A DNA stretch of 64,000 nucleotides from an uncultured delta proteobacterium (GTDB lineage: Bacteria > Desulfobacterota > Binatia > Binatales > Binataceae), in assembly GCA_963808235.1 (NCBI GenBank), contig CAWEEQ010000004.1, forward strand, positions 96,001 to 160,000, read 5' to 3'. Both the position numbers and the translations under genes were made by a program. Shown piece after piece: positions 1 to 9,226 of the stretch. Below the pieces are notes generated by a model. The model made no database searches, was not told the origin of the DNA, and saw only the letters and a program-made list of their open reading frames with translations. The first letter of the stretch is position 1. Every line of letters starts with the position of its first letter.

Positions 1-83
1 ATCCTTGAAGCAGGAAGAAAAGGACTCTCGGGGCGCCGAGGCTAGCGAATAGAAAGGAGTGTCAGGCCTTGCTGCGTTATGAG

Positions 84-114
84 GAATCCCCCGATTCGGG
101 GGATTCTCTCTTTT
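84..114 (+). terminator. Intrinsic terminator hairpin
   Basis: GAATCCCCCG-ATT-CGGGGGATTC perfect 10-bp stem followed by TCTCTTTT; abuts the stop of the convergent 113..589 gene. Confidence 0.75.
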
Positions 115-589
115 AGAGATCGGCAGAGATTGGTGCGGCGAGGCGGTCCACCTTGGTCATCCACCGCGTCAGTCCATCGCGGACGTATTCAGCGTCGAGG
201 TCGACGTAGGCGCATAGGGAATCAAAACCAAGCGCGGAGCTCGAGTCGGGCGCGCCCATCCATTCGCGCACCATCGCGCGGGATTCGGGTCTCTGCTGGT
301 ACAGTCTCAGCAGCATAGACAAAAATGGAATGAACAGATGATGTTCGGCGGATCGATCGAAGAGCACCAGGCCTTCGTCATCGTTGAACCGCACTTCGGG
401 GCTATCGTAACCGGCATACTGAAGGCCGGAATCGATCCAAGCATTCTCCGCGCTCAAACTGGGGTGACCGTTGGAAGCCGGAAATCGTAACGGCGCGCCG
501 TATAGTCCGGATTCCCGTTTCTTATAGATAGTTCGCGGGGCCGGGAAGGCGCTCCGCGATTCCGATAATTTCCGGGTTCTTATTTGCAT
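113..589 (-). CDS. Uncharacterised small protein, paralog of 8751..9101
   Basis: C-terminal half AEHHLFIPFLSMLLRLY...VREWMGAPDSSSALGFDSLCAYVDLDAEYVRDGL aligns by eye with the 8751 protein; AAGGA RBS and sigma54 promoter upstream. Confidence 0.7.
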   Translation of the reverse strand: MQIRTRKLSESRSAFPAPRTIYKKRESGLYGAPLRFPASNGHPSLSAENAWIDSGLQYAGYDSPEVRFNDDEGLVLFDRSAEHHLFIPFLSMLLRLYQQRPESRAMVREWMGAPDSSSALGFDSLCAYVDLDAEYVRDGLTRWMTKVDRLAAPISADL

Positions 590-644
590 CGATCAAGTCC
601 TTGTCCCAAGTATCTCTCTACGCAGGAGGACTGAGTGGGAGTAG

Positions 645-660
645 AGCAACAGCTATGCCA
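645..660 (-). promoter_or_regulatory. sigma54 (-24/-12) promoter
   Basis: Minus strand TGGCAT-AGCTG-TTGCT, matches TGGCAC-N5-TTGCW, about 55 nt upstream of ATG 589. Confidence 0.75.
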
Positions 661-872
661 CCCGGGTTTCCTCGTCGTTCGGCGGCCTCACGTATCAAAC
701 ACAAGGCTTTCGCGCCTTCTACGCCCTACGAATGTCTTTGAAGTGACTAAGTTGGAATGGACCGTGTAAGAAAGGGAGGGTGGTGATCGGTAGTCAGCGA
801 TGTTGGCATCTAACTTGGATCACTAGTTCAAAGAGTCGCGAATTTCTGGAGGATAGAAATAGCTTCGCGCGA

Positions 873-2207
873 ATGGCAAAAGAACCGGTCATCGGCGGCG
901 CGAAGCAAGTCACGACGCTGAGATCGGCGTCGCCCCATCTCCCCAGACTGACATCGAAACTGTTTCGCGTGCTTGGAAACTTCGGTCCCGGAATCGTGAC
1001 CGGCGCTTCCGACGACGACCCCAGCGGCATCGCGACGTACTCGCAGGTCGGCGCCCAGTTCGGCTTTTCGATGCTCTGGACGATGATTCTTACCTATCCG
1101 CTGATGGCGGCAATTCAGGAAATCAGCGCATGGATCGGGCGAGTGACCGGAGTCGGCATTGCAGGCAACATCCGCCGTCACTACGCGCCGATCGTGCTCT
1201 ACCCGCTAGTCGGGCTCTTGCTGTTGGCCAATGTGATCAATCTTGGCGCCGACATCGGCGCGATGGGTAGTGCGCTGCAATTGTTGGTCGGCGGATCGGC
1301 GCTATTCTATTCGGTCGAGTTCGGAATCATTTCGGTAATCGCGGCGATCTTTGTGCCGTACGGCCGATACGCACAATTGTTGAAGTGGTCGACGCTCGTG
1401 CTGTTTGTGTACGTAGCAACTGCATTAGTGGTCCACGTTCCATGGAAACCTGTGTTGATGGGAACGTTCATTCCTTCGATCTCATTTTCGAATAGCTACT
1501 TGACTGCGCTGACCGCGGTTTTCGGTACTACGATTAGTCCATATTTGTTTTTCTGGCAGGCGTCGCAGGAAGTCCAGGAACAAAAGGCTGCAATCGGCGA
1601 GATGCCACTGAAGCGCGCTCCAGAGCAGGCAGCGGCGCAACTCAATCCAATGCGGGCCGACACATACCTGGGCATGGCATTTTCCAACGTGATCGCTTTC
1701 TTCATCATCCTGGATACGGCGGCGGTGCTGCATACTCACGGAATCACCGACATTCAAACCGGCGCGCAGGCTGCGGAGGCATTGCGGCCGCTGGCCGGCG
1801 AGCTCACGTTTCTGCTTTTCAGTTTGGGCATCGTAGGAACCGGGTTGCTCGCTATTCCGGTTCTGGCCGGCTCCGCGGCGTACGCGATGGCCGAGGCCCT
1901 GAACTGGCCGATCGGGCTCGACCGCAAACTGCATAGGGCCAAAGGTTTCTATGGAATTTTAGGCGGAGCGACACTGCTCGGCGTGGCCATGAATTTCGGC
2001 TCAATCAATCCGATCAAGGCGCTCTTCTGGAGTGCCGTAATCAATGGAGTCGCCGCCGTTCCGATCATGGTGATCATGATGATGATGACCAGCAATCCGA
2101 AGGTGACTGGCGCGGTCAAGCTTCCCAAACCGCAAAAGATAGTTGGATGGATCGCGACCGGGATCATGCTGGTGGTGGCCGCCGGCATGATCGCAAGTCT
2201 GTGCTAG
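873..2207 (+). CDS. Nramp-family divalent metal cation transporter
   Basis: GPGIVTGASDDDPSGIATYSQVGAQFG and GTTISPYLFFWQ motifs, many TM helices; start at ATG 873 preferred over 780. Confidence 0.9.
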   Translation: MAKEPVIGGAKQVTTLRSASPHLPRLTSKLFRVLGNFGPGIVTGASDDDPSGIATYSQVGAQFGFSMLWTMILTYPLMAAIQEISAWIGRVTGVGIAGNIRRHYAPIVLYPLVGLLLLANVINLGADIGAMGSALQLLVGGSALFYSVEFGIISVIAAIFVPYGRYAQLLKWSTLVLFVYVATALVVHVPWKPVLMGTFIPSISFSNSYLTALTAVFGTTISPYLFFWQASQEVQEQKAAIGEMPLKRAPEQAAAQLNPMRADTYLGMAFSNVIAFFIILDTAAVLHTHGITDIQTGAQAAEALRPLAGELTFLLFSLGIVGTGLLAIPVLAGSAAYAMAEALNWPIGLDRKLHRAKGFYGILGGATLLGVAMNFGSINPIKALFWSAVINGVAAVPIMVIMMMMTSNPKVTGAVKLPKPQKIVGWIATGIMLVVAAGMIASLC

Positions 2208-2389
2208 ATGTCGGCCGACCTTGGCGCAAGCCCGGATTAGTCAGATCTCCTCGCACAGACCGAACCGCCTATGAACTCGGTAAGATCGTGGTCCAACAAT
2301 TGTGAGAAGCCCAAGCGCCACCACTTCAAAGATCTCGATTCTCGTAAGCACGATTGCACTCACGAGTCCGAACCGGAATTGATCGCCTC

Positions 2390-2405
2390 TGGCACTTCGC
2401 TTGCT
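2390..2405 (+). promoter_or_regulatory. sigma54 (-24/-12) promoter
   Basis: TGGCAC-TTCGC-TTGCT, exact consensus, about 50 nt upstream of AGGAG RBS and ATG 2457. Confidence 0.8.
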
Positions 2406-2456
2406 TTAGTAGTCGGGCACCGAGACGCATCTCGATATGCCCGAACAGGAGAAATC

Positions 2457-3056
2457 ATGATGATCAGGAAAATAGTGCCAGTCGGGCTTATTGCGGCCGC
2501 GTTCGCGATCCCCGTTTGGGCGCACTCCGCCGATGACGCCGCCTCGCTGCTGAACAAAGCGAACCAGATGAACTACGAGGAGCAGGAGACCGCTAAGGTC
2601 GCGCACTCGAAGGCAGGAGACAATCAAGCGCTGCTGACTTATGCCGACACGATCAGAGGCGACCACGAAGCCAACGAGGAAGCGGTGTCCGCACTCTCCC
2701 GGCAAAAGAGCATCAAGCTCGAAGGGACCAACGCCGACAAGGTGAACAACGATCCGATAAAGAACCTGAGCGGTGGCGCGTTCAACGACGCCTACCTGGA
2801 CGATCAGATCAAAGGTCACAAGGAGGCGCTCGCAATGTTCAAGAGCGCGGAGGGCAGCTATCGATCGGATCCGGACATGGAGCTCTACATTCAGCAGACG
2901 CTCCCGGTACTCCAGGCGCATCTGAAAATGGCGGAGAACCTGCGCCATCACGTCTCGCCGATGAGTGCCGAAGATCCATCCAACAACAAGAGCACGACCA
3001 GCGGGATGGGAGAGAGCTCTGAAAAGACGCCGAACAACGAGACCACATCGCGCTAG
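2457..3056 (+). CDS. Secreted DUF4142 (ferritin-like fold) protein
   Basis: Signal peptide; LSGGAFNDAYLDDQIKGHKEAL and QTLPVLQAHLKMAE motifs typical of DUF4142. Confidence 0.85.
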   Translation: MMIRKIVPVGLIAAAFAIPVWAHSADDAASLLNKANQMNYEEQETAKVAHSKAGDNQALLTYADTIRGDHEANEEAVSALSRQKSIKLEGTNADKVNNDPIKNLSGGAFNDAYLDDQIKGHKEALAMFKSAEGSYRSDPDMELYIQQTLPVLQAHLKMAENLRHHVSPMSAEDPSNNKSTTSGMGESSEKTPNNETTSR

Positions 3057-3078
3057 GGCGAGACTACAAAACGACGCG

Positions 3079-3672
3079 GTGCGAGACTCCCTCGCGACGT
3101 GGAGTCTCGGCGCCGCGATTGCCGCGGTATTCATTTTCGGCACGCTCTTGAATCAAAGCGTCGAGTCGGCGATCGAGCCCGCTCTTCAGATTGCGCCTCC
3201 CTTCGAGGGTCTGCGCCTTTCGGATCTTCACGACAGTTTCGACGAGATGCACTTTGGACATCGTCACGAGGCGATTGACATCATGGAGCCTCGCGGCACG
3301 CCGATTCATGCGGTCGACGACGGCACAATTCGGAAGTTGTTTCTGAGCCGCGCTGGCGGCATCACGGTATACGAATTCGATATGGCCGGTTCGTACTGTT
3401 TCTACTACGCGCACCTGGATCATTATGCGGACGATCTGCGTGAAGGAATGCCGGTGGCGCGCGGCCGGGTAATCGGGTTCGTCGGGACAACCGGCGACGC
3501 TCGGCCGGATGCGCCCCAGCTCCACTTCGCGATCTTTCGACTGGGTAACGACGCAGTCTGGTGGAAGGGAACGCCGATCAATCCGTATCCAATTCTCGTG
3601 GATGCGTTAAAGAGAGAATCATCCGCGGATACCGCGAATAGTCATGATAGTAGTAAGGTGAATAGTAACTGA
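3079..3672 (+). CDS. M23 family metallopeptidase
   Basis: HEAIDI (HxxxD), YYAHL, IGFVGTTG, PQLHF, PINPY; N-terminal TM segment; GTG start inferred. Confidence 0.85.
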   Translation: MRDSLATWSLGAAIAAVFIFGTLLNQSVESAIEPALQIAPPFEGLRLSDLHDSFDEMHFGHRHEAIDIMEPRGTPIHAVDDGTIRKLFLSRAGGITVYEFDMAGSYCFYYAHLDHYADDLREGMPVARGRVIGFVGTTGDARPDAPQLHFAIFRLGNDAVWWKGTPINPYPILVDALKRESSADTANSHDSSKVNSN

Positions 3673-3694
3673 CTAGTCGTTGCGATAGTCAGAA

Positions 3695-4066
3695 TCAGGC
3701 GCAGTGCTTCGCGATAGTAGCGAGGAGACGATCGATGTCCACGGGCTTGCGCAGAACGGTGTCGGCGTCGATTGGTTTTGCCACGCTCGAGGCCGACACG
3801 ACCACGACCGGGATATTGGCTATCCGCGGATCGCTCTTTTGACGACGGCGAAATTCCCACCCATCCATGGTGGGCATCAGAAGATCGAGCACGATCATCT
3901 GTGGAAGAGGCGATCGTCCGAGCATCTCCAGGGCTTCCGCCCCGTTTCGGGCGCTGGAAACCGCATAGCCGTGCAGTCCGAGCAGATCGCTGAGGGCTTC
4001 GAGGGCGTCGGGATCGTCTTCAACTACCAGGATGACAGGCCGCGTGCCCACGGATTCATTTACCAT
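3695..4066 (-). CDS. Single-domain response regulator (REC)
   Basis: ILVVEDD, LDLLMPTMDG, KPVD receiver motifs. Confidence 0.9.
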   Translation of the reverse strand: MVNESVGTRPVILVVEDDPDALEALSDLLGLHGYAVSSARNGAEALEMLGRSPLPQMIVLDLLMPTMDGWEFRRRQKSDPRIANIPVVVVSASSVAKPIDADTVLRKPVDIDRLLATIAKHCA

Positions 4067-4350
4067 TTCCGAGTCGCCTTCAATATCTCAAACAAAGCTG
4101 GAATCTTTGCCAAGTCTTCGAGGGATCGGTTGGGGTCGGCGCTGGCGGGACTCAACTTGTGGGACCGTTCTCGCAAGTAATGGTAGCTCCAAAAGCCCAG
4201 CCGCTCAACTTCGGGATTCCCGGCGATCGATTGGGCCGCGGCCGAAGTCGAGTCTTCCTCGATTCGATAATCATTCGCGTTCGAATTGTCGAAAACTTGT
4301 ACATCACGCAGAGACTGTTTCCAGGGATTTATACCACCTAAGTCTCGCAT
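4060..4350 (-). CDS. Hypothetical protein
   Basis: 96-aa ORF filling the gap between ligD and the REC gene on the same strand, overlapping the REC start; no recognisable motif. Confidence 0.3.
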   Translation of the reverse strand: MRDLGGINPWKQSLRDVQVFDNSNANDYRIEEDSTSAAAQSIAGNPEVERLGFWSYHYLRERSHKLSPASADPNRSLEDLAKIPALFEILKATRKW

Positions 4351-4366
4351 AGCGTACGCGCGGACG

Positions 4367-7072
4367 TCAGGCTGAACTGTTCATCCCCAGGCGCGGAGTG
4401 TTCAGGAGAGCTTCGAGCTGGCCCAGCGCGTTTTCGAGGTCGGCGTGTCTTTCGATCGCGTCGAGGAATGGATCGCGCTTGAGCCGGGTCATCCGGGGCG
4501 CGATGGTTTTAATGTTGTAAATCGACGGGTCCAGCGCCGGCTTGAGTTCGGTCCACTTCATCGGCGCGGAGACCGGCGCACCTTCGAGCGGACGCACGGA
4601 GAACGGCGCAGCGATGGTTTTGCCGTGGCCGAGTTGCAGGTAGTCGATATAGACGCGGCCCTGACGCGAGCGCGGGTTTCGATTGATGGTCGCAATTTTC
4701 GGAATTCGCCGCACCACGATTTCCGCGACCAGTTCGGAGAACATCTTCGCCTGCGCGTAGGTGTATTTTGGCGCCAATCCGACCACCACGTGGAGGCCCA
4801 TCTGGCCCGAGGTCTTGAGGCACGGCTCCAGACCCACCTCGCGCAGAACCGCGGCGGTCTCGCGCGCGACCTGCACCGCGAATCGCGTCGTTGATCCTTT
4901 CGGATCGATGTCGAACAAAAGCCAGTCCGGGCGCTCCAGATGTGTGATGCGCGACGACCAGATGTGAATGGTGATCGCGGCAAGATTTGCGATGTATGCC
5001 AGCGCCTCTTCGCTGTCGAGGATGAAGTAGCCGATCTCGCGCTTCGAATCTTCCGACCAAATTTTTTCAATACGAAGCCACGAGGGCGCAAATGCGGGCG
5101 CGTCCTTTTGATAGAACATCTTACCCGCGATACCGTCGGGATAACGGGTGAGCATCACCGGACGATCCTTGAGATAGGGGAGCATCCACTTCGAAATCGT
5201 GCGGTAGTACGTGACCAGGTCGCCTTTGGTATAGCTATCTTTGGGAAAAAAGATTTTGTCGGGATTTGTTACGGTCGCGATATCCGTGGCTGAGCGGTTA
5301 CTCTCAATCGAGTTGGTAGGTGAGTGAGTATTCGAATTGTTATTCGAGCCGGTATCATCGCCGGAGCCGGCGGCTTGCCTGATAGCTACTCCGCGATCGC
5401 CCGCATGTTCCTGCGCTGAGCGATCGGCTGTCGCGGGCGAGTCGAAATCGCGCGCGGGTCCCTCGTAGCTACATTCGCGCGGGTCGGTATCTTTGACGAG
5501 GCCCAGGAAACTGGGCTGCCTGATACCTCCGCCGTTCGTCCACTCCGTGAATCTGACTTCGCAGACCAGGTCGGGCCGCACGAAATGCACGTTTTTCCCC
5601 GGTGTGGGCTCGTCGCGGGCGGCCTTGCGAAATGGCGACGTCGATTGCACGCGCTCCTCGAGCATCGCGCCGATCTTGCGGAGCGTATCCTGATTGAAAC
5701 CGGTGCCGACCTTGTCGGTGTAGCGCAGTGCGCCGTCGGATTCATATTGGCCGAGCAGCAAGGCGCCGAAATGAGTGCGCGTTCCTTCCGGGTCAGTGTA
5801 GCCGCCAATCACGAATCGGCGAGTGAGCGGGCATTTGATCTTGAGCCAATCACCGCTGCGCGCGCCGCGATAAGGCGAGTCGCGCAGTTTGCCGACGATT
5901 CCCTCAAGAGCCTTTTCGGAGACCGCCGCGTAGAAATCTTTTCCTCGCTCGACGACGTGATCGCAATATCGGACCGGACCTTCGCCCAGGATTAGCGCGC
6001 TCAAGTTGCGCTTGCGCTCTTCGAGCGGCAGGGTTCGCGTGTCGAAACGATCGAAGGCGAGCAAGTCGAAAACAAAGTAGCGGACCGGAACGGCGAAACT
6101 TAAGCGCGCGATCTGACGCGGATCCTTCACGTGCATCCTGCGCTGGAGCAATTGAAAGCTCGGACGGCCATCGTCGTCCTGAGCTACGATTTCGCCGTCG
6201 AGGACGAATCGTTCGTAAGGAAGAGAATTCAAAGCGAGGATCACTTCCGGATAGCGCGCGGTAATGTCGGTGCCGCTGCGCGCGTAAAGATGCGCAGTTG
6301 CGCCGTCGCGAATAGCGACCGCGCGCACGCCGTCGTACTTGAGTTCGAACAGCCATCGCGGGCTGTCAAAGGAGTCGCCGCCAAGCTTGGCGAGCATCAG
6401 CTGAAAATCGGCGCGCTTCAGCGTTCCCGCGTGCTCCGGAAGTTTTGCACGCGCGAGCCGCTCGATAACTTTCTCGCCGACCGAGTGCGTATCGCGCATC
6501 TCCTCGATGGTCAGGCCCGACAGCACCGAGCGGGGATGCTCCTCGAGGACGTCGGAGCTGGTCGCGTATTGGTCGCGCTTCTTTATGAGCAACCAGTTCT
6601 GCTTGTCTTTCGGGGTGGTGCCGGGGCGTCCTCCAGTCCGCACCAGCGTGAAAGCGCCGTTAAGTTTGAAACCGTGGAGTTCGATATCCACTTTGCCTTT
6701 GCGTATCGCATTCGCGGCGTCACCCTCGCCCTCGAGGACTTTGTACACGCCGCGATCCCAGACGATAACCGCGCCGGCGCCGTAGTTGCCCTCTGGGATG
6801 AGGCCTTCGAAGTCGCCGTATTCGAGCGGATGATCTTCGACCGCAACCGCCAGGTGTTTATCGGCCGGATTGAGAGTGACGCCCTTGGGGACGGCCCACG
6901 AGCGGAGCACGCCCTCCATCTCGAGGCGGAAATCGTAGTGGAGTCGGCGCGCGGCGTGTTTCTGGATGACGAAGATTCCGCCGCTGGCAGGGTGCCCGGT
7001 CGCGACGGTCTGTCCGAACGGCTCGGGGGTGCGCTCAGCGTGTCGTTTTTCGCGATATTTGGTTAGGGGCAT
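4367..7072 (-). CDS. ligD: NHEJ DNA ligase D (phosphoesterase-ligase-polymerase order)
   Basis: QKHAARRLHYDFRLE (PE), ELKYDGVR and EGIVGK (ligase), TNPDKIFFP, RYPDGI, DIDP, KTSG (primase-polymerase). Confidence 0.97.
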   Translation of the reverse strand: MPLTKYREKRHAERTPEPFGQTVATGHPASGGIFVIQKHAARRLHYDFRLEMEGVLRSWAVPKGVTLNPADKHLAVAVEDHPLEYGDFEGLIPEGNYGAGAVIVWDRGVYKVLEGEGDAANAIRKGKVDIELHGFKLNGAFTLVRTGGRPGTTPKDKQNWLLIKKRDQYATSSDVLEEHPRSVLSGLTIEEMRDTHSVGEKVIERLARAKLPEHAGTLKRADFQLMLAKLGGDSFDSPRWLFELKYDGVRAVAIRDGATAHLYARSGTDITARYPEVILALNSLPYERFVLDGEIVAQDDDGRPSFQLLQRRMHVKDPRQIARLSFAVPVRYFVFDLLAFDRFDTRTLPLEERKRNLSALILGEGPVRYCDHVVERGKDFYAAVSEKALEGIVGKLRDSPYRGARSGDWLKIKCPLTRRFVIGGYTDPEGTRTHFGALLLGQYESDGALRYTDKVGTGFNQDTLRKIGAMLEERVQSTSPFRKAARDEPTPGKNVHFVRPDLVCEVRFTEWTNGGGIRQPSFLGLVKDTDPRECSYEGPARDFDSPATADRSAQEHAGDRGVAIRQAAGSGDDTGSNNNSNTHSPTNSIESNRSATDIATVTNPDKIFFPKDSYTKGDLVTYYRTISKWMLPYLKDRPVMLTRYPDGIAGKMFYQKDAPAFAPSWLRIEKIWSEDSKREIGYFILDSEEALAYIANLAAITIHIWSSRITHLERPDWLLFDIDPKGSTTRFAVQVARETAAVLREVGLEPCLKTSGQMGLHVVVGLAPKYTYAQAKMFSELVAEIVVRRIPKIATINRNPRSRQGRVYIDYLQLGHGKTIAAPFSVRPLEGAPVSAPMKWTELKPALDPSIYNIKTIAPRMTRLKRDPFLDAIERHADLENALGQLEALLNTPRLGMNSSA

Positions 7073-7243
7073 TGGAGGGGAAATGCGGATCGGTAGTGAT
7101 CTAATTTGGTTTGAAAGTCTAGTCTACCAGACCGTCATCGAGCGATCTGAGAGTCGAGGTGGTGTGCGTAGATCTTAGAGGCAGAGTTGGCATTGCCTGG
7201 TGCCGCAAATCTGCAAGGTGTGCTGCTGCCAAGCGCCGAGAAA

Positions 7244-7277
7244 GATCCGGGGTTCCTCGGCTTCGCTCGGAATGACA
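7244..7277 (-). repeat. REP-like intergenic element (GTCAT type)
   Basis: Minus strand TGTCATTCCGAGCGAAGCCGAGGAACCCCGGATC, resembles GTCAT-headed extragenic palindromic repeats; single copy in window. Confidence 0.45.
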
Positions 7278-7306
7278 CAAAAAAAGACGGCGGAGCAGAG
7301 GCGGGC

Positions 7307-7345
7307 GACCTAACCCTGGCCCCTTTCCCTTGAAGGACGGGGAAC
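7307..7345 (+). repeat. REP-like hairpin repeat, copy A
   Basis: GACCTAACCCTGGCCCCTTTCCCTTGAAGGACGGGGAAC, closely similar to the reverse complement of 39699..39737. Confidence 0.7.
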
Positions 7346-7399
7346 CGCGTCGCACTTGGTCGATTCGGCAATTCGGATCGTGCTTGCTTTGGGCGTGAA

Positions 7400-7436
7400 C
7401 CTCTCCCTAACCCTCTCCTTGGACAAGGAGAGGGGA
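7400..7436 (+). repeat. REP-like hairpin repeat, copy B (may double as ku terminator)
   Basis: CCCTAA followed by CCCTCTCCTTG-GA-CAAGGAGAGGG perfect stem. Confidence 0.65.
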
Positions 7437-7461
7437 AAGCGTTGGGCAACTCGGCGATCGG

Positions 7462-8352
7462 CTAGCGGGCGCTGCGGGAGCGCGCTCGTTTTGGCTGGGA
7501 CTTGCGTTCCTCAGTCGCCTGGCGTTCCGCTTTGGACGATTTTGCGGATTCCTCTTTGCCCTCGGCGTTGAAGGCGACGCCGCGCTTTTCCAGCGAGGCT
7601 TTCAGCGCGCTCATCAGGTCGATCACGTTGCCGCGGCGAGCTTCCGGGGTGGGCTCGGAGATCTCGTGCCCGGCGAGTTTCTGCTCAGCCGCCTCGATTA
7701 CGCGCTCGCGATAGTTGTCCTTGTATTTCGAAGGCTCGAATTTCTTCCTGGTGAGGTCGGCGAGCAGGCGCTCCGCCAGCGCGAGTTCCGAATCTTTGAC
7801 CGCGGCGTCGGCTCCATGATCGATCTCTTTGAATGTTCGAATCTCATCTTCGTAGTACATCGTATGCAGCATCAGGCCGTCATCATGCGGCCGGATGAGC
7901 ACCAAGCGTTCCTTGCCACGCATCGTGAATTTGGCGAGTCCGACCCGGCCCGCTTTGGCCATCGCTTCCTTCAGCAGATGGTAGGCTTTCGCCGAAATCG
8001 GTTCGCATCCGAGCAGATACGAATTCTCGAAATAGACTGGATCGACTTCGGTGACCGGAATGAACTCCTCTATTTCAATTGCGCGATCAGCCTGCGCCTC
8101 GAGCTTCTTCAATTCCTCGTCAGTGAAGGTTACGTAGCGGCCCTTCTCGATCTCGTAGCCGCGGACCAGCTCGCTGCGGTCAATAATCTTTTCTTCCACC
8201 GGGCAGAAAATCTTTTCCTGGATCCGGCTCTTGTCCTTATCGTGGAGCAGGTTGAAGCGGACCGATTTCGAGCTGGTCGCCGGAAACAAACGGACCGGGA
8301 TCGAAACCAGGCCGAAGGTGAGACTTGCAGTCGATATCGAACGAGCAGGCAT
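7462..8352 (-). CDS. ku: NHEJ DNA end-binding protein Ku
   Basis: LTFGLVSIPVRLF, FEPSKYKDNYRE, NVIDLMSALKASL, basic tail; GGAGG RBS before ATG 8352. Confidence 0.97.
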   Translation of the reverse strand: MPARSISTASLTFGLVSIPVRLFPATSSKSVRFNLLHDKDKSRIQEKIFCPVEEKIIDRSELVRGYEIEKGRYVTFTDEELKKLEAQADRAIEIEEFIPVTEVDPVYFENSYLLGCEPISAKAYHLLKEAMAKAGRVGLAKFTMRGKERLVLIRPHDDGLMLHTMYYEDEIRTFKEIDHGADAAVKDSELALAERLLADLTRKKFEPSKYKDNYRERVIEAAEQKLAGHEISEPTPEARRGNVIDLMSALKASLEKRGVAFNAEGKEESAKSSKAERQATEERKSQPKRARSRSAR

Positions 8353-8457
8353 CGCTGTAACCTCCAGGAATTCGGGGGGCCATATTACACCGGCGTTTTG
8401 CCGCGCAATAGTACCATCAACCGCCCATGGAGGGGTTATTGACGATATCAACCACGA

Positions 8458-8473
8458 GGCAATCGTCATGCCA
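8458..8473 (-). promoter_or_regulatory. sigma54 (-24/-12) promoter of ku
   Basis: Minus strand TGGCAT-GACGA-TTGCC about 105 nt upstream of the ku ATG. Confidence 0.7.
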
Positions 8474-8577
8474 TCGGCGAAGATTTGGCCTCCATATCGT
8501 GGCCTAGCGGGGTCGACGATAACGCACGTCGCGATAGATTGGTCGCTCGACAAGCCTGAATAATTTTCACTATGGGC

Positions 8578-8596
8578 AATCGCGATCGTCGCGATT
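8578..8596. promoter_or_regulatory. Inverted repeat, candidate activator (bEBP) binding site
   Basis: AATCGCGA-TCG-TCGCGATT between two divergent sigma54 promoters. Confidence 0.35.
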
Positions 8597-8653
8597 TGTA
8601 GCTCGCGGAACGAGATTCTCTAAACTTTTCCGACAGATTTTTGAGCAAATCGT

Positions 8654-8669
8654 TGGCAGCGGTCTTGCT
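8654..8669 (+). promoter_or_regulatory. sigma54 (-24/-12) promoter
   Basis: TTGGCAG-CGGTC-TTGCT about 80 nt upstream of GAGGG RBS and ATG 8751. Confidence 0.7.
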
Positions 8670-8750
8670 TCACACTAAGCCGAGCGACGCAGAGACGATC
8701 AGTCGCCACTCTTCCCGAGGGGAACCAGAAACGACCGTTGAGGGACTAAC

Positions 8751-9101
8751 ATGAACGTAGAAATAGCCAACGAACTGCCGAACATATTTCAGGGGTCCGA
8801 TATCCTGCCGGTCCAATACAATGACCTGTTCCGTCGGGGCACTCAGACGGCGGACGCCGAGCGGCGCCTTCTCTTCGCCCTTCTCGAGGACGGCATCCGC
8901 TGCTACTTGAGGTATCGCGATGCCGAGCGGAACTCGCCCCAGCGGCTCGAATTTCTCGAAGCTTCGAACTGGATCAATTCCAACGACGACGATGGACCGT
9001 TCGCCTTCGTAAACGTTTGCGAGGCGCTCGGTATCGACCCGAGCCATCTGCGCTACGGCGTGCATAAGCACGTTGGACAGCTCGAGGAGATCCGCATCTA
9101 A
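8751..9101 (+). CDS. Uncharacterised small helical protein, paralog of 113..589
   Basis: AERRLLFALLEDGIRCY...EASNWINSNDDDGPFAFVNVCEALGIDPSHLRYGV; clear RBS, promoter and downstream hairpin. Confidence 0.85.
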   Translation: MNVEIANELPNIFQGSDILPVQYNDLFRRGTQTADAERRLLFALLEDGIRCYLRYRDAERNSPQRLEFLEASNWINSNDDDGPFAFVNVCEALGIDPSHLRYGVHKHVGQLEEIRI

Positions 9102-9187
9102 GCCGATCGATCTCGGCACCACTTTGCATACATCTTACGCCGGGTAACCCTGCACCACCAATCCTGCACCCGGACACCTGGCGTGGG

Positions 9188-9226
9188 AAAAGAGAGGCGT
9201 TGGCTAAATCAGCCAGCGCCTTTCTC
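9188..9226. terminator. Probable bidirectional terminator
   Basis: AGGCGTTGGCT-AAATC-AGCCAGCGCCT stem flanked by A-rich and T-rich runs, between convergent genes. Confidence 0.65.

Follow-up and report, generated by a model that had tools for sequence, protein, structure and literature searches.

Two small genes flanking a ku-ligD locus in an uncultured Binatia bacterium: members of a large unannotated protein family with conserved candidate sigma-54 promoters

The stretch of 64,000 nucleotides (nt) analysed here, referred to as the window, covers C4:96,001-160,000, where C4 stands for contig CAWEEQ010000004.1, in the 4.59-Mb, 60% G+C genome of an uncultured member of the Binatia, family Binataceae. 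The analysis centres on two small genes near the start of the window, at 113-589 and 8751-9101, which lie at the two ends of a block that includes the end-joining repair genes ku and ligD, and on the sigma-54 elements that appear to precede them. The genes and candidate promoters, by window position, with domains assigned by Pfam and the small genes taken from the list of open reading frames (ORFs), are:

113-589, minus strand: small family gene, a coding sequence of 158 amino acids (aa)
646-660, minus strand: candidate sigma-54 -24/-12 element TGGCATAGCTGTTGC, about 57 nt upstream of the ATG (589) of the 113-589 gene
780-2207: Nramp gene
2390-2404, plus strand: candidate sigma-54 element TGGCACTTCGCTTGC, upstream of the DUF4142 gene, score 12/13
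2457-3056, plus strand: DUF4142 coding sequence (PF13628, E 6e-23), start by inspection, within ORF 2271-3056
between the genes at 113-589 and 8751-9101: M23 peptidase gene
3695-4066, minus strand: single-domain response regulator (REC)
4367-7072, minus strand: LigD coding sequence, with phosphoesterase, ligase and primase-polymerase domains
7462-8355, minus strand: Ku coding sequence (PF02735), most likely start, within ORF 7462-8553
8459-8473, minus strand: candidate sigma-54 element TGGCATGACGATTGC, upstream of ku-ligD and back to back with the candidate promoter of the 8751 gene
8654-8668, plus strand: candidate sigma-54 element TGGCAGCGGTCTTGC, about 83 nt upstream of the ATG at 8751
8751-9101, plus strand: small family gene, a coding sequence of 116 aa whose product is tail-less and acidic (pI 4.8)
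16555-16569, plus strand: candidate sigma-54 element, before a Phenol_MetA_deg-family gene and a gene for a 1441-aa PAS hybrid kinase

Both small genes are present as the original prediction had read them, are monocistronic, and face outward at the ends of a block whose gene content (Nramp, DUF4142, M23, REC, LigD and Ku) was likewise read correctly. For two genes of the block the longest ORF overstates the gene. Ku most likely starts at Met67 (8355) of its ORF, because tblastn alignments with relatives start at residue 48-68, and inspection of the translation suggests an internal start at Met63 (2457) for the DUF4142 protein, so that with these shorter starts candidate sigma-54 elements would fall in the upstream regions of both genes: the one at 2390-2404 about 53 nt before the methionine that opens a signal-peptide-like segment of the DUF4142 protein, and the one at 8459-8473 about 105 nt before the methionine that matches the usual N-terminus of Ku.

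The two small proteins had been taken for paralogs, and a significant profile alignment exists between them. BLASTP of one against the other gives E 9e-5 (21% identity over 107 columns), a family profile built without the 113-589 protein scores that protein at 20 bits (E 1.9e-8 for one target), and hhalign joins the 113 subfamily (18 sequences) to the main family (30 sequences) with a probability of 97.9% and E 6.3e-13 over 66 columns. Judged by these alignments, the two are distantly related members of one large unannotated family. The subfamily of the 113 protein is itself made up of 42 database clusters with 59-100% identity, most of them aligned over 94-100% of its length. In a six-frame profile scan, the genome proves to contain exactly nine copies of the family, with E values from 3e-49 to 2e-19, the next match standing at E 0.58.

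Beyond this genome, a profile search of 1.84 billion cluster representatives returned 11,976 family representatives (clustered at 50% identity) at E <= 1e-3 and 6,506 at E <= 1e-10; the 150 listed representatives are 117-230 aa long, and the family overall spans about 110-200 aa. A count of copies per genome and in phages, which the original prediction had proposed, finds members in 100 of 101 Binatia genomes at E <= 1e-8 (99/100 without one genome flagged as unpublished), with a median of 8 copies and a range of 0-23; all 55 genera sampled carry the family, as do 88 of the 89 genomes of high quality; in a phylum-wide sample, members occur in 16 of 201 genomes. The genomes sampled are related and are thus not independent samples. 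A protein atlas hints at members beyond the Binatia, in Acidobacteriota and Uroviricota.

The family is also present in phage contigs. Eight IMG/VR contigs (from 101 pattern matches screened) carry a member, as ORFs that score 74-115 bits and contain all the family motifs. A PHROG scan of the neighbouring genes on seven of the eight found structural or replication matches (tail, terminase, RecT and DnaD-like) in six and none in one. In those six, methyltransferase, HNH, RecT-like and resolvase-like genes surround the member gene, or it precedes terminase genes or sits with tail genes. On several of these contigs it ends a replication/methyltransferase module, ahead of terminase, and on one it is placed among the tail genes. 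Among predicted viral structures, Foldseek matches uncharacterised Caudovirales proteins (best E 1.6e-3, probability 1.00, TM 0.47/0.55), and tblastn finds no match to the family in GenBank phages. In this genome the surroundings of all nine copies are free of integrase and phage genes, and the idea that the window copies came from a phage or a mobile island was accordingly set aside.

The original prediction recognised no assigned function, and none has emerged from the database searches. Neither window protein matches Pfam or NCBIfam even at E <= 10; 19 or 30 members give no family in PHROGs, NCBIfam or PADLOC (nothing below E 0.039 in PHROGs; 30 members for NCBIfam and PADLOC); and of two sequence-profile searches of the PDB, one gave nothing below E 0.45 and the other no match. 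Pfam DUF6280 (PF19796), to which the atlas gave a score of 0.84-0.87 on 24% of one cluster's members, was considered and rejected, hmmscan giving no match.

Each small gene is preceded by a candidate sigma-54 promoter, as had been predicted. In both elements the GG and GC dinucleotides are 10 nt apart, in the orientation of the gene and inside the consensus TGGCA-N6-TTGC, the exact pattern counted below. Scores refer to the literature consensus YTGGCACG-N4-TTGCW, with GG and GC fixed and a maximum of 13. The genome encodes rpoN (one Sigma54_DBD match, 211 bits) as well as 19 genes with a strong Sigma54_activat (enhancer-binding) match. The motif is enriched upstream of family members. Sites of at least 10/13 stand upstream of four of the nine copies, as compared with 104 of 4,057 crude genes (2.6%; binomial 4.9e-5), a rough baseline since it counts sites within 200 nt of longest-ORF gene calls; for sites of at least 11/13 the corresponding figures are 2/9 and 22/4,057. 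In the phylum-wide sample, 8 of 30 family loci (four of the 30 being from this genome) have a site, against about 1.1 expected from the flanks (17 sites in 182,868 nt).

Conservation among orthologs is the stronger test of these elements. Among genes of the 8751 type, drawn from metagenome contigs at 47-91% protein identity, 51 of 52 loci carry (T/A/G)TGGCA-N6-TTGC(T/A) some 65-98 nt ahead of the start and vary greatly in the spacer (55 loci were found, three of which, with less than 180 nt upstream, were excluded). In a second paralog lineage, represented here by C4:2,334,508-2,335,032, CGGCA/TGGCA-N6-TTGC occurs at -98 to -121 in 62 of 67 loci (80 found; 13 excluded for short flanks or for lack of a start codon at the match), and in a third, which contains many near-identical sequences, TGGCAC-N5-(A/G)TGCT lies near -63 in 17 of 21 (24 found, 3 excluded). 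The predicted element is, on this comparison, conserved in the 8751 lineage and in two other paralog lineages while its spacer drifts, and the motif enrichment proposed along with the original prediction holds in this genome as well as among the orthologs.

The elements of the two small genes are part of a larger concentration. The window contains the exact pattern five times, a number that none of 100 shuffles reached, as compared with 0.42 expected, and four sigma-54 elements lie inside 8.1 kb where 0.087 would be expected. There are 49 exact matches in the whole genome, ten of them in C4:72,883-112,555 (39.7 kb), again with 0.42 expected (Poisson 3.5e-11). The members of this cluster that lie just outside the window stand before a DUF1328 gene, a BON-domain gene and a small-protein operon whose products have C-terminal hydrophobic helices and no Pfam match. 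A gene for a REC-AAA+-HTH_8 (NtrC-type) activator (C4:79,498-80,859, minus strand; Pfam) lies 16-24 kb from the two small genes, and a histidine kinase gene (C4:75,393-77,207, minus strand) beside the cluster. A Crp-like regulator is also encoded there (within C4:72,883-96,000).

These counts show a local concentration of predicted sigma-54 promoters before stress-type genes, including ku-ligD; the candidate elements at ku-ligD and at the DUF4142 gene, and the 40-kb cluster as such, are new here. The original prediction had placed the small genes in a sigma-54 stress programme, and the dense cluster, with ku-ligD, DUF4142, BON, DUF1328 and an NtrC-type activator, adds to that idea; the programme itself we infer. 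The phage-shock (Psp) response is a known sigma-54/enhancer-binding-protein stress regulon, and the present cluster resembles it in having sigma-54 promoters before small stress-type genes and an AAA+ activator encoded nearby. It differs in gene content (ku-ligD, DUF4142, BON, DUF1328 and the new family) and in its putative activator, an NtrC-type response regulator with a kinase.

The region between ku and the 8751 gene contains two divergent candidate promoters within a short distance. An alignment of 13 orthologous intergenic regions shows that most of them keep the element before ku, with the core kept in about 11 by eye. Elsewhere in the genus, the sites before ku are weaker at best. The same 13 aligned regions bring out further conserved features:

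8555-8641, no strand assigned: conserved intergenic blocks, CCTGAAnAATTTTC and an A/T-rich stretch, between the divergent candidate sigma-54 promoters
8684-8706, plus strand: conserved stem (GCGAC...GTCGC) in the 5' untranslated region, ahead of the ribosome-binding site of the 8751 gene

The blocks at 8555-8641 would be candidate activator or IHF sites, and the stem may be a regulatory RNA element. A palindrome upstream of the 8751 gene (AATCGCGATCGTCGCGATT) is not conserved in the aligned upstream regions of the orthologs.

The original prediction of a small helical family agrees with the structural models. AlphaFold2, given 19 or 143 aligned sequences, produced all-helical models with a mean predicted local distance difference test (pLDDT) score of 76 and 80, in which the core exceeds 90 and the N-terminus and tails lie at 50-65. 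The model from 143 sequences has helices at residues 19-30, 32-52, 60-73, 83-90 and 94-109, the last two being 8 and 16 residues long with a 3-residue turn between them. Inspection revealed no signal peptide or membrane segment. Invariant or nearly invariant are the Gln of LLPxQYF, the Leu, Ala, Leu and Asp of LxLAVLED, a Trp, a Phe-x-Phe, a Cys, a Leu and an Arg; a second cysteine is found in at least 90% of 30 sequences but in less than 90% of the 143-sequence alignment. The core is near neutral, and seven of the nine paralogs carry a C-terminal tail of 30-84 residues with a net charge of +7 to +16. The 113 protein has no basic C-tail and is basic instead in a conserved segment at its N-terminus (net charge +6 ahead of the core, and the same within the first 30 aa). 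A prediction of a homodimer from two copies of core residues 10-116 of one paralog scored 0.00 against a mark of 0.42, which is no evidence either way.

The most conserved segment, FSFxxVCExLGIxPxxLRxxL, has hydrophobic, small (Cys), hydrophobic, Gly and hydrophobic residues at the positions typical of a classical helix-turn-helix (HTH). In this it resembles small HTH domains such as sigma-70 region 4, Fis-type HTH_8 and HTH_20/HTH_29: it aligns with them in register, local hhalign against HTH domains of this genome giving P 0.0012 for sigma-70 region 4, P 0.029 for HTH_8 and P 0.46 for GerE in the same register, and 3 of 90 relatives have sub-threshold HTH_20 or HTH_29 matches on it. It differs from them in that scores stay below threshold and no structural match stands out, and the family's long extra helix (LxLAVLEDAIxC) and conserved N-terminal peptide are without counterpart in HTH domains. 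One of the 90 relatives has a separate HTH_23 domain fused at its C-terminus (E 2.8e-6, above the Pfam cut-off).

Together these features lead us to an explanation that we hold to be somewhat more likely than not. The two proteins would be outputs of a stress or resting-state regulon controlled by sigma-54 and an activator, with a single divergent control region activating the 8751 gene together with ku-ligD, and would act as small nucleic-acid-binding regulators or nucleoid-associated proteins. The helical core with its HTH-like motif, together with the Arg-rich tail, is what suggests nucleic-acid binding: a core of about 87 aa would end in an HTH-like helix pair (the FSFxxVCExLGIxPxxLRxxL segment), and the disordered tail of most paralogs would add non-specific affinity. 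Two variants of this scheme would be the 8751 protein, which is acidic and lacks a tail, and the 113 protein, whose basic segment sits at the N-terminus instead.

Several results weigh against this explanation. On the side of the promoters, five of the nine copies in this genome, one of them at the end of the isc operon, are without a sigma-54 motif; the 113 gene and ku have motifs of no more than 10/13, a level at which intergenic matches are barely denser than those in the genome at large; and the enrichment figures carry the rough baseline already described. K-mer counting found no activator site common to the ten clustered promoters, the best 7-mers occurring in four regions, two of which overlap, and a search of sequencing runs listed 14 soil DNA runs that contain part of the stretch and no RNA run. 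On the side of the proteins, no HTH profile is significant (an hhalign probability of 19% at best, for sigma-70 region 4), and the HTH-like segment has no Pfam match above cut-off in the two window proteins or 90 relatives. The fold comparison that the original prediction had called for gave the helical models and no fold match that stands out: Foldseek on the PDB found nothing at E <= 0.001 and only generic helical-bundle matches at E > 1, among them XRE-type, homeodomain and DnaA-DBD chains at E 2-6, and the best VIA scores, Z 5.7 and 6.5 and mostly to bS20, lie well inside the noise stated for helical models. A match to an AlpA antiterminator complex (Foldseek E 1.3, TM 0.19) was dropped as noise.

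The best-surviving alternative, though unlikely, is that the binding partner is RNA polymerase or a sigma factor and not DNA, which would make the proteins small transcription modulators comparable to WhiB-like proteins, anti-sigma factors or phage polymerase-binding proteins. Small helical proteins with many paralogs per genome that are also carried by phages would fit such a role, as would the conserved LLPxQYF in the low-confidence N-terminal segment, which could be a docking peptide, and the fact that no DNA-binding family was detected; there is, however, no similarity to any known polymerase-binding family, and the strongly basic tails fit nucleic-acid binding better.

The comparison with the WhiB-like (Wbl) proteins of Actinobacteria, whose four invariant cysteines hold a [4Fe-4S] cluster and which are reportedly present in actinophages, is instructive in this respect. 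The Wbl proteins share with the present family a small helical build, a large degree of concentration in one lineage with many paralogs and with copies in its phages, a conserved cysteine, a tail that is basic in most members, and stand-alone genes at scattered, paralog-specific loci. There is no sequence or profile similarity between the two (no Pfam Whib match in the two window proteins or 90 relatives), the new family has one invariant and one near-invariant cysteine rather than four, and many of its members appear to be sigma-54-driven, which is not known to be a feature of Wbl. It is tempting to go further and to picture sigma-54 and the NtrC-type activator as a general stress/dormancy switch of the Binatia for non-homologous end joining (ku-ligD), for envelope/osmotic-stress proteins and for phage-shared small transcription modulators largely concentrated in this class, which as functional counterparts of the WhiB-like proteins would reprogram transcription, with the isc-end paralog tying the family to iron-sulfur/redox status and the phage copies hijacking the switch; as a whole we consider this wider scheme doubtful.

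Improbable, to our mind, is a family of RNA- or ribosome-associated stress proteins, made when growth stops, in which a three-helix bundle and a basic tail would resemble bS20. The best VIA matches are indeed bS20 chains (Z 6.3, root-mean-square deviation 3.3 A, 84 of 87 residues aligned; Z 5.7 elsewhere), and the basic tails and the location beside stress genes are in keeping with it. These Z values are below the noise level stated for helical models, though, with 8% sequence identity and no sequence signal, and the 8751 protein is acidic and tail-less.

We rate just as low a role in sensing redox or iron-sulfur status through the conserved cysteines, with the sigma-54 link secondary. In its favour, besides the one invariant cysteine and the second that at least 90% of the 30 sequences share, is the setting of one paralog lineage (in this genome C4:579,341-579,910), which, in the same orientation, comes directly after iscU-iscA-hscB-hscA-iscX in 9 of the 13 Binatia genomes examined and has iscA alone 1.7-3.5 kb upstream in three of the remaining four, the last having none; this linkage hints at a tie between the cysteines and iron-sulfur metabolism. 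However, the 113 protein and two further paralogs lack the first cysteine, the invariant one occupies the usual small-residue position of an HTH and may be structural, and there is no match to a metal-binding family.

The original prediction had further proposed that the paralogs bracket the Nramp-to-Ku block as one functional system. The four sigma-54 elements within 8.1 kb speak in favour of such a unit, as does the divergent pair of ku and the 8751 gene, which is kept in 11 of 15 metagenome contigs at 72-91% identity to the 8751 protein (with ligD following where the contig reaches), the other four having less than 400 nt of upstream sequence. With window positions 1-12,000 as the query, however, neither small gene has a DNA match in any of ten genomes from the genus or family, in which ligD and ku are found and Nramp or DUF4142 lies elsewhere, unlinked to ligD-ku in most. 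Five same-genus genomes have no family member within 12 kb around ku-ligD (best E 0.48), the 8751 protein has only relatives of 42-44% identity, in 4 of 60 other genomes of the class, and the 113 subfamily profile finds 1 of 201 Binatia genomes, namely this one. More distant genes of the 8751 type have PLP enzyme, HAD hydrolase, response-regulator or hybrid-kinase genes as neighbours, and when nine copies are placed at random, 13% of simulations bring two of them within 8.7 kb (P 0.13). The bracketed system is thereby already largely refuted, and we regard it as the least probable of the readings: these comparisons make the bracket, taken whole, a peculiarity of this genome and no functional unit, and we conclude that the pairing of the 8751 gene with ku is a real feature restricted to one lineage.

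The genes next to the other seven copies in this genome are unrelated ones with housekeeping or regulatory roles. A fixed partner gene for the family was looked for and rejected, the neighbours differing between paralog lineages. REC-domain genes occur within about 1.6 kb downstream of 8751-type genes at 12 of 80 metagenome loci. Three of these have the REC gene on the same strand, with 53-55% identity to the window regulator at 3695-4066; the loci are related, and the observation is a lead only.

The Binatia are abundant, uncultured soil bacteria. A literature search found no paper linking Binatota and sigma-54; among the matches listed for Binatota, Binatia or Binatus, none deals by title with regulation. 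A passage search of the main genomic survey of the Binatia found no mention of sigma factors or dormancy, and one of a 2025 survey of sigma-54 regulons none of LigD, "non-homologous", Binatota, "general stress" or "hypothetical protein". A family with about 12,000 clusters, found in nearly every Binatia genome searched and in phages as well, is without an entry in Pfam, NCBIfam or PHROGs, and the conserved sigma-54 promoter that many of its members appear to have offers a concrete handle for its study. For bacterial end-joining repair, a sigma-54 promoter before ku-ligD would be an unusual form of control, and the candidate element found there suggests that in these organisms such repair is tied to a resting state.

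Compared with one ortholog, the 8751 gene is under purifying selection: differences at the three codon positions number 9, 10 and 41, with 36 synonymous and 16 non-synonymous codon changes. The hairpin that had been noted downstream of each small gene is real in both cases, as judged by folding energies:

83-107, no strand assigned (folded region 76-110): palindromic hairpin of 11 pairs between the 113-589 gene and a convergent hemerythrin-domain gene
9102-9225, plus strand: two hairpins 3' of the 8751 gene

Read on the minus strand, the region 76-110 folds with -22.5 kcal/mol (z -5.4), and its hairpin has a T tail in the plus-strand reading only; the hemerythrin-domain gene that faces the 113-589 gene is located upstream of the window. 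The two hairpins beyond the 8751 gene have values of -7.9 kcal/mol (z -2.9) at 9102-9117 and -26.7 kcal/mol (z -5.1) at 9191-9225, the latter sitting between convergent genes. Between ligD and ku, at 7233-7290 and 7391-7434, there is a sequence of about 35-55 nt that has dozens of matches within the same genus at 83-97% identity, and that looks like a dispersed intergenic repeat of the repetitive extragenic palindromic (REP) or miniature inverted-repeat transposable element (MITE) type.

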